A stretch of 64,000 bases of DNA from the NCBI GenBank assembly GCA_048938855.1, contig JBHLLT010000002.1, positions 288,001 to 352,000 on the forward strand, read 5' to 3'. Position numbers and translations under genes: made by a program. Shown here one piece after another: positions 12,049 to 17,485 of this stretch (position 1 is its first letter; the number at the start of each line of letters is the position of its first letter). This DNA is from Promethearchaeota archaeon. GTDB taxonomy: Archaea; Asgardarchaeota; Lokiarchaeia; Sigyniarchaeales; SOKP01. The notes under the pieces were generated by a model that ran no database searches, was not told the origin of the DNA, and was given only the letters and a program-made list of their open reading frames with translations.

Positions 12049-13191
12049 TCATATGTTTATATGAATGACTTTTGCTGGAGGAAAACCGTTAAAATGGGTC
12101 GCAGAAGCATTAGTATAAGCCCCAACATTTTCAGAATACAGTAGATCTTCAACATCTAAATCGGGTAACCATTCATTGAGTGAAATTTTATCTAGTGCAT
12201 CACATGTTGGGCCTACAACTGCAGATTCTTTAAGTACACCTTCCTTAAATGCTTTGAAATGATATTGAATATGGTCGAAAATTGTACCTGAAAAAGTATT
12301 ATATACACCATCGTTAACATAATAATATGTTTTATCATTTCTAATTGCTTTACCATTAATTTCAACTATTGCTACAGCACCAGTTGCAACGAAGAAACGT
12401 CCTGGCTCTGCTATTATTTTCATATTGGAGGAATTAAAATATTGTGAAATTTTATTGTTAATTATTTCAGCTAAGGATTCAAAAGATGGAACATTTTCAT
12501 CATAAGGGGCGGGAAATCCTCCACCTATATCTAAAAAAGTTAATTTTTGATCTATCTCTTTTGCCTGTTCAAAAATGTTATAAGCAATTTGAAATGCTTG
12601 GTTATAATTATCAAGATTACTACATTGACTACCAACATGAAAACTTAATCCTTCAACGTCAAATCCTGCCTTTTTAGCATACTTTATTAAGTCTATACAA
12701 ATCTTAGGGTTTGCCCCAAACTTAGTAGAGAGTTCCACAACTGAACCAGTGTTAGGAACATCAACTCTTAATATTAAACGGTTATTTTTGCAATATTTAG
12801 CAATCTTATCAATTTCTATATAGTTATCAAAAGTCATCCGGATAGAATATTCATTAAGTTTTTTTAATGAGTCAATTCTCTTTACAGGATTAGCATAAAT
12901 TACCTTTTCATTGATAAAAGCTTTTTTATCCTCATGATTTCCTTTAATAGTATCATATACAATCATAAGTTCTTCCCAAGAAGCAACATCAAATCCAGCA
13001 CCTTCTTTATAGAGAGTTTCTACTATTTTTAACTCAGGATTAGCTTTAATCGCATAAAATGGTTTTACACGAGAAAGATATTTACAGAATTTGTGATAGT
13101 TTGATCTTATTAAATTATGATCGATAACAATCAAAGGAGTACCATTTTTATTTACCATATCTAACAAAGTTGATTTATCAATCATTTTCAT
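12049..13191 (-). CDS. Ornithine (lysine/ornithine) decarboxylase, PLP fold type III
   Basis: PFYAIKANP (PLP Lys), GFDVAS, SFHVGSQC, LDIGGGFP, IIAEPGRFFV, YVNDGVY, GPTCDALD, GAYT. Confidence 0.9.
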   Translation of the reverse strand: MKMIDKSTLLDMVNKNGTPLIVIDHNLIRSNYHKFCKYLSRVKPFYAIKANPELKIVETLYKEGAGFDVASWEELMIVYDTIKGNHEDKKAFINEKVIYANPVKRIDSLKKLNEYSIRMTFDNYIEIDKIAKYCKNNRLILRVDVPNTGSVVELSTKFGANPKICIDLIKYAKKAGFDVEGLSFHVGSQCSNLDNYNQAFQIAYNIFEQAKEIDQKLTFLDIGGGFPAPYDENVPSFESLAEIINNKISQYFNSSNMKIIAEPGRFFVATGAVAIVEINGKAIRNDKTYYYVNDGVYNTFSGTIFDHIQYHFKAFKEGVLKESAVVGPTCDALDKISLNEWLPDLDVEDLLYSENVGAYTNASATHFNGFPPAKVIHINI

Positions 13192-13481: not shown

Positions 13482-14282
13482 CTATCCACGGAATCTTCTT
13501 TCTAACGTTTTAGTATGCAATATGATAGCTAAAAATAAAAAACCAAAACCGAAAACTATCAAGATACCAACATCAAATAGTACTCCTAATGGTCCAAATA
13601 CACTAGTACTTCCCAAACCAATATTTATAATATCAATGAAATATGTTAATGGAGATATGAAAACTATTGGTGATAAAGTTATTGGCATGAATAAGGGACT
13701 TATAAACACTAATGGAAATTTAATGAGAACTGTAAATACCATTGTGTTCCCAGGGGTATCTGTGGAAGGAACTGACAATATAAGACTAAAGCACGCGAAA
13801 GCTAAACCAGCGATTACCATACCAGTTATAACATAGAAAAGATTTATTGTTAATTCCGCTGACAGAAAAATCATCCCAATTATTAATGGAATTGATGAAA
13901 ATATAATTCCATAAATAAAAGTACTCCAAACACTCCCGATTAATATCGTCTTTATCGATATAGGGCATGTTACTAATCTTTCGAATGTTCTCCTCATTGT
14001 CTCCCAAGGAAATACTATAGGTCCAATTGAAGTTGATGTTAAAAATGTGATCATTGCCATTAGACCAGAAATTAAATAGATTGGTTGTACACTCCTCCCC
14101 AGAGTCAGAGCTATGAAAAGTATTATTGGAAAAAGAATTCCTTGAATTAAAACAGGAGGTTTATTGTAATAGATTTTTAAGTCTTTTTTTGTAATTACAA
14201 ATGATCTCTTTAACTGAATGATAAAAGTGCTCATCTTGTTACGTTCTAAAATCATCTCACTCAATTTTAACACCTCTCTCAA
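13482..14282 (-). CDS. ABC-2 type exporter permease (true start probably slightly downstream of the ORF-track start)
   Basis: About six hydrophobic segments, WETMRRTFERLVTCP, ISPLTY; adjacent to an ABC ATPase. Confidence 0.85.
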   Translation of the reverse strand: MREVLKLSEMILERNKMSTFIIQLKRSFVITKKDLKIYYNKPPVLIQGILFPIILFIALTLGRSVQPIYLISGLMAMITFLTSTSIGPIVFPWETMRRTFERLVTCPISIKTILIGSVWSTFIYGIIFSSIPLIIGMIFLSAELTINLFYVITGMVIAGLAFACFSLILSVPSTDTPGNTMVFTVLIKFPLVFISPLFMPITLSPIVFISPLTYFIDIINIGLGSTSVFGPLGVLFDVGILIVFGFGFLFLAIILHTKTLERRFRG

Positions 14283-15249
14283 TAATTTTTAAAAATGCTT
14301 CCTCTAATTTAGGTTCATGAGTACTAAGATGTTTTATCTTTATATTTTTGGATTTAATATAATCAATTAATTCGAAGATGGAATTATGGATATCTTCGAC
14401 GATAATATGTACACCTTCTTGAGTCTTTTGAACCTCGCTAACACTATGGAGATTTTTGATTTCTCCTAAATTTACTCCATTTTCAAAATTTAAATCTATT
14501 GCTTGATAATCCTGTGTTATTTTCCTTATATTTTCTGGCGTGTCTAGACTAATTATCCTTCCATGATTGATTATTGCAATTCTATCACATAATTCATTAG
14601 CAACTTCCATATCATGCGTCGTCAAAAAGATTGTCATCCCGTTTTCGTTGTATTCTTTTATCAATTGTTTTATTATCTTTGCAGATTGAACATCAAGACC
14701 AGATGTAGGTTCATCAAGGAAGAGTATTTTTGGATTAGTCATCAAAGCCATACACAATAGCAATCGCTGTTTCATCCCTTTTGAGTATTTTTTTGCTTTA
14801 AGAGTTCGTTTCTCATACAAATCAAATTGTTTCAGTAAACTCTCTGCCTTTATAATCCGTTCTTTTTTAGGTATACCATAAATTTCTCCAATAAACATTA
14901 AATTATCCCATCCTGAAAAGGAAATGTATACATTTGCCATTTCAGGTACATTTCCAGTAACTTGTTTGACAGTGATTTGACTTTTCCATGCATTTAAACC
15001 AAAAATTTTTATTTCTCCTTGAGTTGGTTTTAAAACGCCAGTCATCATCCGAATTGTAGTAGTTTTACCGGCACCATTTGGCCCCAAAAATCCAAATATT
15101 TCTCCCTCTTTCACTTCAAAGCTAATATTATCGACAGCCCGGATGATACTTATTTTCATTTGAGGACCATTTGGCCCCAATTTTCCATGCTTTGCCCTTC
15201 TAGGCGGTTCAAAATGCTTAGATAAATTACTTACAACAATAGCACTCAA
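14257..15249 (-). CDS. ABC-2 exporter ATP-binding subunit (DrrA-like)
   Basis: GPNGAGKTT, YSKGMKQR, LFLDEPTSGLD, LTTH; TTG start. Confidence 0.92.
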   Translation of the reverse strand: MSAIVVSNLSKHFEPPRRAKHGKLGPNGPQMKISIIRAVDNISFEVKEGEIFGFLGPNGAGKTTTIRMMTGVLKPTQGEIKIFGLNAWKSQITVKQVTGNVPEMANVYISFSGWDNLMFIGEIYGIPKKERIIKAESLLKQFDLYEKRTLKAKKYSKGMKQRLLLCMALMTNPKILFLDEPTSGLDVQSAKIIKQLIKEYNENGMTIFLTTHDMEVANELCDRIAIINHGRIISLDTPENIRKITQDYQAIDLNFENGVNLGEIKNLHSVSEVQKTQEGVHIIVEDIHNSIFELIDYIKSKNIKIKHLSTHEPKLEEAFLKIIERGVKIE

Positions 15250-15271
15250 TATAGCACCTCTTTAAAAAAAA

Positions 15272-15430
15272 TTATTTATCTTCTTCTTCTACTTGAATGT
15301 GCTTTAATAACTCATTAATCGGTTGATCCCCATGACACTTGATTATTTGGTTTAAAGTACATCCTAGGGGATGTTTTTCTTTTATTTCCGGTTTATCGCA
15401 AGCACATTCTTCTGTTTCTTTAATTTTCAT
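15272..15430 (-). CDS. 52-aa Cys/His microprotein MKIKETEECACDKPEIKEKHPLGCTLNQIIKCHGDQPINELLKHIQVEEEDK (absent from ORF track)
   Basis: Hand translation ATG 15430 to TAA 15272; GAGG upstream; four Cys with a CHG motif; ends 22 bp before the ABC ATPase start. Confidence 0.7.
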   Translation of the reverse strand: MKIKETEECACDKPEIKEKHPLGCTLNQIIKCHGDQPINELLKHIQVEEEDK

Positions 15431-15465
15431 TTTATATTTTCCTCATCATTTTAACTTTAATTTTA

Positions 15466-15492
15466 ATTAGTTAAGTGACAGATTAAACTAAT
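15466..15492. promoter_or_regulatory. Inverted repeat ATTAGTT-N13-AACTAAT; candidate ArsR operator
   Basis: Perfect 7-bp arms in the divergent intergenic region between the microprotein/ABC operon and the ArsR gene; AT-rich, so could be chance. Confidence 0.4.
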
Positions 15493-15537
15493 CAAACCCA
15501 ATATTTAAATCTTTTTTTTTTTTAATTTTTATTAGAT

Positions 15538-15885
15538 ATGACAAAAGAAATAGATCTTGAAAATATTGGTACTTACATAAAAGCTTTGCATTGTCAAATT
15601 CGATGGGTTATAATAGATATTTTAAGAGATGGGCCAAAATCTTCAGATGAACTTTATACTCATCTCAAAAGTGTAAGTGAGAATTTAAATGGTAATAACC
15701 AGTGCCATGGATTGTGTGGTAAAGGAGATTTTAAGGATTTAAAAAAACCATCATTGTACTATCATCTTAGAGAGTTAGAAAGTGTTGATATAATTACGGC
15801 AGATTATAGACCTAGCGAGAGTAAAAGAGCTCCAGAAAAAGTATGGAAGCTAAACATGGAAAAACTAACAATAAATTTGAAATAA
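15538..15885 (+). CDS. ArsR/SmtB-like regulator with a Cys/His insertion
   Basis: KALHCQIRWVIIDILRDGPKS...SLYYHLRELE; extra QCHGLCGKG loop inside the HTH. Confidence 0.8.
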   Translation: MTKEIDLENIGTYIKALHCQIRWVIIDILRDGPKSSDELYTHLKSVSENLNGNNQCHGLCGKGDFKDLKKPSLYYHLRELESVDIITADYRPSESKRAPEKVWKLNMEKLTINLK

Positions 15886-16060: not shown

Positions 16061-17485
16061 ATGAGTGATAATACTGAAGAGATATTAACATTAATTGCTG
16101 AAAAAGCAAAGTTAGCTGAAGGTTCTGAAGGTGTACGCTCTATTCTATTAACCATGTATCGCTTTCCTTCCTTAAAAAATAAAAAAGTATCCCAAAAAAC
16201 AGGGATTGCAGTCCCTTCCCTAGCAGCAGTTAGAGGTGAATTAGTTAAAGCAGGAATTATTGAAAAAAAGAATTTTCTTGGAGAATTAGGGAGAGATTGG
16301 ATAAAAAAACGCCTCAAATTACAATTTAATTATGATCCTCTTCCTGAAAGTTTCAATAGCATAATAAAAGAAGTACCAGAAGAATTCACATACTTGAATT
16401 CTATTAAAGATTTGCTTAATAACCGACCAGATCCAGAATTTTCACTTGATCAATCTCATGCAGATTTCTCAACTATCGTAAAGAAAGTTCTCTATTTATT
16501 GAAAAAAGGAGAGATCGAGGGAAGAAAAATAATATTCCTTGGAGATGATGATGTAATATCCTTAGCTTTAGGGTTAACAAAACTAGCTGATCAAATAACT
16601 GTAGTAGATATTGATAATCGCGTTTTAGATTTTATCTATCAATCAGCACAGGACCGCAATTTAAAGAATTTTGAAGTAATAAACCACGATTTAAGAAAAT
16701 CATGCCCAAAAACAATAATGAATAAATTTGACGTAGTTATCATGGATCCGCCTTATACTATCGAAGGTTTGAGATTATTTTTAAAAAGAGCAAGGCAAAT
16801 TATAAAGTCAAATTTAAAAATCAATGATAAAATATACCCTATTGTTGGAAAAAAGTGCCTTCTTAGTTTTGGAAATAAACCACCAGTACAAATGCAAAAA
16901 TTGCAATTAGCAATATTGGATCATGGATTTATAATTAACGAGATGCTACCTGATTTTAATCATTACGAAGGTGCTAGTATAATCGGGAAATTCAGTCATC
17001 TTTACTTCTTACAATCTGTAATAAATCCAAACGATAAATACAATCTTAACTTTTTTTCACAACCTATATACACTTCTGAAGTAAAATTAATACCTGATTA
17101 TTCATTTCGACCAGTTGGATTTCATTTTGTTGGTGAAATGCATTTTAAAAATCAAGATTATTTATTAGAAAATGAAGTAATCCATAAGATTTTTATAGAC
17201 TCCCTTATAAATGCCGATTTAACAATTCTCGATGTTTATCATCATAATTATCATCCATATGGATATAGTGCTATTGCTATATTGAAAACTAGTCATGCAG
17301 CAATTCATACATGGCCTGAGCATGGATATATTAGTATTGATATCTTTATTTGTGAAGGATATGAAAAAGGCTTAAGTGTAATTAAATTTTTGAAAGATAA
17401 GTTAATTCCATTAGAATCTGAATTTTACTATGCTGAACGCGGAAAAAAAGGTATAATAGAATATAAAATACTTGAATTAAAATGA
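16061..17485 (+). CDS. Fusion: wHTH + BpsA-like (DUF43, bis-aminopropyl spermidine synthase family) aminopropyltransferase + C-terminal pyruvoyl S-adenosylmethionine decarboxylase (SpeD/SpeH-like) domain
   Basis: RP...LDQSH, IFLGDDD, VVDIDNR, HDLR, DPPYT (BpsA family); from ~17117 GFHFVGE...PYGYSAIAILKT-SHAAIHTWPEHGYISIDIFIC (AdoMetDC proenzyme). Confidence 0.85.
   Translation: MSDNTEEILTLIAEKAKLAEGSEGVRSILLTMYRFPSLKNKKVSQKTGIAVPSLAAVRGELVKAGIIEKKNFLGELGRDWIKKRLKLQFNYDPLPESFNSIIKEVPEEFTYLNSIKDLLNNRPDPEFSLDQSHADFSTIVKKVLYLLKKGEIEGRKIIFLGDDDVISLALGLTKLADQITVVDIDNRVLDFIYQSAQDRNLKNFEVINHDLRKSCPKTIMNKFDVVIMDPPYTIEGLRLFLKRARQIIKSNLKINDKIYPIVGKKCLLSFGNKPPVQMQKLQLAILDHGFIINEMLPDFNHYEGASIIGKFSHLYFLQSVINPNDKYNLNFFSQPIYTSEVKLIPDYSFRPVGFHFVGEMHFKNQDYLLENEVIHKIFIDSLINADLTILDVYHHNYHPYGYSAIAILKTSHAAIHTWPEHGYISIDIFICEGYEKGLSVIKFLKDKLIPLESEFYYAERGKKGIIEYKILELK

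Follow-up and report, generated by a model that had tools for sequence, protein, structure and literature searches.

The 64,000-nucleotide stretch of Promethearchaeota archaeon DNA considered here (contig JBHLLT010000002.1, positions 288,001 to 352,000, the whole of which is called the window) encodes a single protein of 474 residues plus stop (16061..17485, plus strand, as are all its features given below) in which a BpsA-type N-terminal domain and a PF01861 aminopropyltransferase core are joined to a complete class 1b S-adenosylmethionine decarboxylase (AdoMetDC, SpeD). The protein is probably a self-contained unit, i.e. a bifunctional proenzyme that makes decarboxylated S-adenosylmethionine (dcSAM) and transfers its aminopropyl group to an amine, with a transferase of the "DPPYT type" that forms a sister family to the branched-chain polyamine synthase BpsA. 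An earlier sequence-only reading of the same DNA had noted that one frame joins a transferase to a complete AdoMetDC-like domain, and this is borne out: the joint is a genuine single-chain fusion, kept at full length in at least 120 relatives.

An AlphaFold2 model from 75 homologs (mean confidence score, pLDDT, 88.4) has two well-folded modules with a low-confidence linker between them. The N-terminal domain (~residues 1-105, 16061..16375; pLDDT ~90) is helical, resembles a winged helix-turn-helix (wHTH) and contains the conserved motif EGSEGV (residues 20-25, 16118-16135). A family profile brings it into alignment with the N-terminal domains of the three solved BpsA structures, those of T. 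kodakarensis (Tk), P. furiosus (Pf) and T. thermophilus (Tth). The HTH_24 model reaches only 17 bits on it, under its cut-off of 21.9, and the family profile weakly matches ScaR and SloR (E = 1e-5 to 1e-4). What the sequence-only reading listed as a distinct wHTH element thus appears to be BpsA's own ordinary N-domain. The Rossmann-fold core (~residues 106-320, 16376..17020) is matched by PF01861 (BpsA_C) over residues 112-327 with 151 bits against a Pfam cut-off of 27, and the first module of the model finds the BpsA structures in Foldseek, 5xnc being the best (E = 3e-21). Its motifs D130-Q131, GDDD (161-164, 16541..16552), DPPYT (229-233, 16745-16759) and FNHY (299-302) lie in columns that are invariant in the alignments, GDDD being present in all 120 close relatives; all of the short motifs given here, including the GDDD and DPPYT that had been picked out earlier, were checked on the DNA. 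A flexible linker follows (~residues 321-350, 17021..17110; pLDDT below 50 at 324-331 and 339-346) that carries an invariant IYTSE (336-340, 17066-17080), a motif aligned to the acidic tail at the C-terminus of BpsA-type enzymes. The class 1b AdoMetDC domain occupies residues 351-474 (17111..17482) and is matched by AdoMet_dc (PF02675) over residues 355-461 with 85 bits against a cut-off of 25, and by the NCBIfam AdoMetDC equivalog TIGR03330 with 82.5 against 75.65. The second module superimposes on the T. maritima AdoMetDC structures 1tmi, 1tlu and 1vr7 with TM scores of 0.84-0.86 and a root-mean-square deviation of 1.8-1.9 Å over ~114 residues. The start of this domain had been placed at about 17117, which is the position of the G353 codon, and by profile and fold the domain is complete.

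A missed stop or an assembly artefact is ruled out as the origin of the joint by the at least 120 full-length relatives and by whole-genome matches without internal stops. Close relatives were sought with a word-indexed search that gave 298 matches; the best 120 of these, which were analyzed, are all 464-482 residues long, 62-93% identical and equipped with both domains, and their source names are Prometh-/Loki-, Thor-, Hermod- and Hodarchaeota. At least 120 clusters of full-length relatives far exceed anything that a chance origin would give. When 301 genomes of the phylum were scanned for full-length stop-free matches, these were found within the window's own family in 16 of 22 genomes of genus g1 and in 13 of 27 of genus g4, in one genome of the sister family f9 (51% identity) and in 20 of 21 genomes of family f24 (33-38% identity); other Asgard families in this sample have an unfused protein of ~390 residues, in several cases with a separate speD nearby. 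Separate genes in relatives together with a missed stop had been named beforehand as what would speak against a real fusion; the missed stop is excluded, although distant relatives do keep the two genes apart and adjacent.

An exhaustive search of 1.84 billion representative sequences, with cluster look-up, found further fused lineages in Odin-, Heimdall- and Hodarchaeales, in Xenorhabdus spp. (501 residues) and in Erysipelothrix spp. (436 residues), and a scan of named genomes added a Dysgonamonadaceae metagenome-assembled genome (MAG) and Paenibacillus motobuensis. That scan also found bps-like and speD genes side by side in Clostridium faecium and in a Spirochaetales MAG, and the two genes are likewise adjacent in Archaeoglobaceae and several Asgard families. 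The fusion occurs in at least three separate lineages, in addition to forms with both a Zn ribbon and SpeD and forms with an N-terminal SpeD. Three-part proteins of 500-560 residues in the order transferase, Zn ribbon, SpeD (P0137, P0140, P0154, P0157, P0172 and one from Xenorhabdus hominickii, L029:6992-8515) look intermediate between Zn-ribbon forms and those fused directly; in X. hominickii a TetR regulator upstream overlaps the gene, and an IS1 transposase comes after it. The canonical SpeE match of X. hominickii (G326:C79:106975-107516), beside a class 1a SpeD, is divided between two frames, a sign of a frameshift or of an error in the assembly. Within genus g1 of family f1 the distribution is patchy, several same-genus genomes of 96-99% completeness being without the fusion or any AdoMetDC, which implies repeated loss or transfer. 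A search for close standalone relatives of the window's SpeD domain gave almost only fusion fragments, mostly on short contigs. Database labels for the relatives read only "adenosylmethionine decarboxylase" or "bis-aminopropyl spermidine synthase family protein", and a literature search that did not cover subscription journals found no description of a PF01861 (BpsA-type)/AdoMetDC fusion or of the DPPYT-type subfamily.

The best sequence and fold match of the transferase is BpsA (EC 2.5.1.128; structures 5xnc from T. kodakarensis, 2qm3 from P. furiosus and 6j27 from T. thermophilus). Like BpsA, the window protein combines a wHTH-like N-domain with a Rossmann core, conserves GDDD and the equivalents of D126, D225 and Y290 (its D130, D229 and Y302, which with GDDD are invariant across distant fused lineages), and has after the core a flexible stretch containing an acidic residue and a conserved Tyr. 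The determinants reported for BpsA are GDDD, Asp225, Glu259, Tyr290 and Tyr316; in Tk-BpsA GDDD is described as positioning the aminopropyl group of dcSAM, and the acidic, flexible cluster at the C-terminus of BpsA as both aminopropyl carrier and specificity determinant (PMC12979288). However, when aligned with Tk-BpsA, a comparison made through PDB alignments only, the window protein has no equivalent of Glu259 or of the 2-residue insert that goes with it, having NKPP instead, and it lacks an insert of ~21 residues after FNxY. It reads DPPYT where BpsA reads DPPET or DPVE-, and its acidic cluster is reduced to IYTxE, which aligns with "LYNDAE"-type tails: the last 45 residues of the transferase part contain 3 Asp or Glu residues against 9-12 in BpsA-type proteins. 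Within IYTxE, Y337 and T338 do not vary, and conservation of E340 is at least 90%. The PF01861 match of 151 bits spans model positions 3-208 of 243, whereas BpsA-type proteins score 330-412 bits over positions 1-243. Unlike BpsA, moreover, the window protein continues into a SpeD domain and its relatives into a Zn ribbon, and the DPPYT type is found in mesophiles and in genomes where SpeE was not found.

The transferase tree (from a quick IQ-TREE run in which SH-aLRT was the sole measure of support; its root, set on a long-branch paralog, is uncertain) places the BpsA-type proteins in one clade with 100% support and all Asgard fused forms in another with 99%, the bacterial fused forms falling elsewhere, mixed with unfused ones. 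One MAG of a hyperthermophile, Methanocaldococcus (G321), contains both types: a BpsA-type protein of 352 residues with DPPET and an acidic tail (L106), and a DPPYT-type protein of 390 residues with a C-terminal Zn ribbon (L109). Because both occur in one genome, the two types are paralogs. On the grounds of the missing Glu259 equivalent and acidic tail, the separate clade and the coexistence in Methanocaldococcus, the window's transferase is not a BpsA ortholog but a member of a DPPYT-type sister family, whose proteins have a Zn ribbon at the C-terminus, a SpeD domain, or the two together. The unfused Zn-ribbon members (Methanocaldococcus L109 and proteins of Bathyarchaeia, C. faecium and Streptosporangiaceae) belong to the same subfamily as the window protein and share with it DPPYT, FNxY-G-x-I-G and IYTxE; in them the Zn ribbon stands at the place of the window protein's SpeD, and speD is often an adjacent gene.

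The same comparison decides largely against the protein being a true branched-chain polyamine synthase with its own dcSAM supply, i.e. one that makes N4-aminopropylspermidine and N4-bis(aminopropyl)spermidine from spermidine. Such an enzyme would account for the BpsA structures being the best matches and for the conservation of GDDD and of the D126, D225 and Y290 equivalents, and a SpeE of the host could supply its spermidine. It is nevertheless unlikely, given the absence of the Tk Glu259 equivalent and its insert, the change of DPPET to DPPYT, the lack of the post-FNxY insert and of the acidic carrier cluster, the fully supported separate BpsA-type clade and the paralogy in Methanocaldococcus. 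In addition SpeE was not found in most carriers, and these include cultured mesophiles (Xenorhabdus, Erysipelothrix), whereas a 2026 review reports BpsA orthologs as restricted to thermophiles (PMC12979288). The branched-polyamine-synthase identity given to the protein from its sequence alone is thus left unproven.

The decarboxylase domain has the marks of class 1b AdoMetDC, namely Ser-His with a His at +5 and a Cys at +20, in S411, H412, H416 and C431. The predicted self-cleavage site, T410|S411-H412 (17288..17296), with Ser411 as the pyruvoyl precursor, aligns to the "aeSH" of the Aquifex and Thermotoga AdoMetDCs. Downstream of it (17306..17353) are the processing residue His416 (codon 17306-17308), TWPE (417-420) and the proton donor Cys431 (codon 17351-17353), all invariant or nearly so across the fused lineages; His416 and Cys431 presumably correspond, by their spacing, to T. 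maritima His68 and Cys83. Among the 120 close relatives Ser411 and Cys at +20 are found in all and His at +5 in 119; the single relative with Leu for His416 (P0005, from a MAG named Thorarchaeota) may be an error or a real variant. G353 and R460 are as well conserved across distant fused lineages as the catalytic residues. In its fold, its SH...HTWPE...C pattern and its comparable length the domain is like the class 1b enzymes of T. maritima (TM0655, 1tlu/1tmi), Aquifex (2iii) and the B. subtilis type. It differs from them in being tethered behind a 350-residue transferase, no standalone gene having been found in the window's clade, and in having Thr for Glu at -1, the position before the cleaved serine.

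This non-canonical residue had been noticed earlier as a KT-SH site at 17288-17296. The four residues are indeed present, but that range codes for T-S-H only, the Lys lying one codon upstream (K409-T410-S411-H412, 17285-17296). The Thr is genuine as well as unusual: all 120 close relatives read T-S-H, with K, E or Q at -2, against Glu in standalone SpeDs (73 of 73, a count from a retrieval pattern restricted to [ET]SH that gives no unbiased frequency). The sister f9 has ES|SH, while E|SH is found in the fusions of f24, Odin, Heimdall, Hod, Xenorhabdus and Erysipelothrix and in the six standalone Asgard SpeDs examined. Thr or Ser at -1 is therefore a derived drift confined to the window's clade and, because all catalytic residues are kept, is no evidence of new chemistry. 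The processing reaction is an attack on the preceding carbonyl for which the -1 side chain is not needed, and E. coli AdoMetDC has a Lys-Ser site, other pyruvoyl enzymes Ser-Ser sites; no literature support was found for AdoMetDC processing with a residue other than Glu at -1. With Ser411, His416 and Cys431 conserved, normal self-processing is to be expected. A more divergent fused group of ~330-445 residues (P0186, P0204, P0216, P0227, P0242, P0246, P0263, P0264) mostly has Ser-Asn, with N, Q or T before SN at the cleavage site and one Q|SH; the four of its members in the SpeD tree have an extremely long branch, and the function of their decarboxylase domain may have changed or been lost.

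The SpeD tree, a quick search on a short alignment, gives the window clade a long stem with 99% support and nests the bacterial fused domains among ordinary standalone bacterial AdoMetDCs. The long stem and the -1 Thr could be taken as signs of decay in a domain that is inactive and serves for structure or dimerization, as the N-terminal domain of animal spermine synthase does, and inactivated AdoMetDC domains in fusions are described elsewhere (PMC12803844, PMC10407285). This is very unlikely, considering the near invariance of Ser411, His416, TWPE, Cys431, G353 and R460, a TIGR03330 score above the equivalog cut-off, and the fact that a genome which keeps SpeE has no other AdoMetDC, while in relatives the domain is the only possible dcSAM source for its own transferase. 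That the domain might act as a pyruvoyl decarboxylase of L-arginine or L-ornithine and supply the acceptor in place of the donor, a repurposing also entertained in the sequence-only reading, has the support that such neofunctionalization is reported to be widespread among SpeD homologs (PMC10407285). It is extremely unlikely here: the transferase would be left without a dcSAM source anywhere in the genome, which already has a pyruvoyl-dependent arginine decarboxylase (PvlArgDC), agmatinase and a pyridoxal phosphate (PLP)-dependent decarboxylase of the ornithine/diaminopimelate/arginine (Orn/DAP/Arg) fold, and the nesting of the bacterial fused domains among ordinary AdoMetDCs again points the other way. 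The C-terminal domain is most likely a true AdoMetDC.

The gene content of the host agrees with this assignment. In its 97%-complete genome there is one AdoMet_dc match, the fusion's own domain, together with a SpeE (a separate gene on another contig), PvlArgDC and agmatinase; for the carboxyspermidine route (carboxyspermidine dehydrogenase and decarboxylase, CASDH and CASDC) nothing above cut-off was found in this genome. The fusion's SpeD domain is the sole visible source of dcSAM in the host, also for the separate SpeE, and nothing evident would require it to make agmatine or putrescine. Among 71 genomes of the window's family AdoMet_dc is found in 17, with 18 matches, of which 16 lie in open frames of 474-502 residues, one ends at a contig end and one (in G104) is a short second match. 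SpeE is found in 4 of the 71, three of them also with AdoMet_dc, and was not found in 14 of the 17 genomes with AdoMet_dc. The module's SpeD is also the only one in C. faecium and the Dysgonamonadaceae MAG, where SpeE was not found and where spermidine could be made via the carboxyspermidine route. The module is self-sufficient for its donor and, since SpeE was not found in most family carriers, in C. faecium or in the Dysgonamonadaceae MAG, shows no general dependence on spermidine made by SpeE.

The preferred bifunctional proenzyme would work as follows. The SpeD domain would cleave itself between Thr410 and Ser411, converting Ser411 to the pyruvoyl group and giving a beta chain of ~410 residues, made up of the N-domain, the transferase and SpeD's first half, and an alpha chain of 64 residues with the pyruvoyl group, which would stay bound non-covalently as in other AdoMetDCs. 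The large chain (residues 1-410) would thus keep the transferase after cleavage, as had been supposed earlier. The processed domain would decarboxylate SAM to dcSAM, and the Rossmann domain would bind dcSAM via GDDD and transfer the aminopropyl group to an amine acceptor. The IYTxE segment would act as does the mobile acidic C-terminal tail of BpsA; since only ~13 residues separate it from the first SpeD strand that follows, and since it is predicted flexible and corresponds in position to the BpsA tail, the site producing dcSAM would be tethered beside the element that closes over the transferase site. Because SpeE was not found in most carriers, the enzyme probably does not have spermidine from SpeE as its only acceptor; it would more likely, and most economically, start from a diamine or from agmatine, perhaps in repeated rounds of extension.

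A number of observations weigh against this proposal. With the acidic cluster down to a single conserved Glu or Asp, the ping-pong mechanism of BpsA may not apply. Thr at -1 is without precedent among the sampled SpeDs and the clade's SpeD sits on a long branch, so that processing at Thr-Ser might be slower or altered. Since 54 of the 71 family genomes are without any AdoMetDC, the module is dispensable or accessory. Xenorhabdus and Paenibacillus have it in addition to a canonical SpeE and SpeD, an argument against plain spermidine as its product. Nothing in the gene neighborhoods hints at the acceptor, those in bacteria (TetR, IS1, Ddl) being uninformative.

The retention of the module beside SpeE and SpeD in Xenorhabdus and Paenibacillus would also fit a transferase that targets a protein, a nucleic acid or a natural-product precursor, guided by the wHTH-like N-domain or, in relatives, by the Zn ribbon. 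The closest unfused relatives do have a C-terminal CxxC...CPxC ribbon, and the N-domain is weakly similar to wHTH regulators. Such a target is improbable, however, in that the N-domain is common to bona fide BpsA, which acts on small polyamines, the Zn ribbon is lost in the window's clade, and no conserved partner gene was seen in the neighborhoods examined. The wHTH, taken earlier as a pointer to a macromolecule to be modified, gives no particular reason to expect one, the domain being the standard BpsA N-domain. Equally improbable is the broader notion that DPPYT-type proteins with a private SpeD, be it fused or encoded next door, are a distinct family whose acceptor is not free spermidine but, in the boldest form, a macromolecule or a non-polyamine metabolite that the wHTH-like N-domain and, in relatives, the Zn ribbon would recognize; if true, mesophilic archaea and bacteria would have a hitherto undescribed way of modifying molecules with the aminopropyl group of dcSAM.

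The organization proposed for the bifunctional proenzyme has a parallel in the SpeD-SpeE fusions (Ca. Pelagibacter, delta-proteobacteria, the ancestor of animal spermine synthase), which likewise place a class 1b AdoMetDC and a dcSAM consumer on one chain and are reported to be bifunctional by experiment (PMC11107197, PMC12803844). However, the domain order is reversed in the window protein, where SpeD is C-terminal, and the transferase is of PF01861 rather than the SpeE family PF01564, of which there is no match in the open reading frame. The PF01861-SpeD fusion is independent of the SpeD-SpeE fusions, and the same logic, known and validated with SpeE, has arisen with another transferase family in several lineages. 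Unlike the BpsA superfamily as described, confined to thermophiles, the sister family is common in Asgard lineages of several classes, and it is found as well in cultured mesophilic bacteria (Xenorhabdus, Erysipelothrix, Clostridium faecium, Paenibacillus), in which it is directly testable. Many carriers have no other machinery for making or using dcSAM, and the family may provide a SpeE-independent route to spermidine or another polyamine, which bears on the supply of polyamine for hypusine-type modification of aIF5A in Asgard archaea. The conserved Thr-Ser site, for its part, is a natural test of what the -1 position of a pyruvoyl enzyme tolerates.

Of the genes around the fusion none forms a conserved polyamine operon with it, a possibility that was considered and rejected since the flanks differ in three relatives. 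Directly upstream (13482-15885) are an ABC-2 exporter pair (permease 13482-14282, ATPase 14257-15249) and, between exporter and fusion, a Cys/His-rich frame of 52 residues (15272-15430) and a divergent ArsR-like HTH gene (15538-15885); no link of these genes to the fusion was seen in relatives. The PLP-dependent decarboxylase of Orn/DAP/Arg fold mentioned above lies at 12049-13191 on the minus strand (380 residues); it scores 176 bits against a lysA cut-off of 298, has no nspC match and is not a conserved neighbor of the fusion in relatives.

Elsewhere in the host genome, contig C91 carries on its minus strand (L012:6237-8981) an operon-like trio of a HAD hydrolase, a second PF01861 paralog and the canonical SpeE (301 residues). 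This paralog has 364 residues, GDDD and "DPPYE", 25% identity to the fusion and a very long branch. The genome also has three deoxyhypusine-synthase homologs (C1:25888-27677, C34:311215-313050 and C39:7953-8795; loci L007-L011), of which one adjoins agmatinase and one the pyruvoyl arginine decarboxylase, an arrangement that suggests a deoxyhypusine synthase-like polyamine route (homospermidine or agmatine-based) beside the modification of aIF5A.

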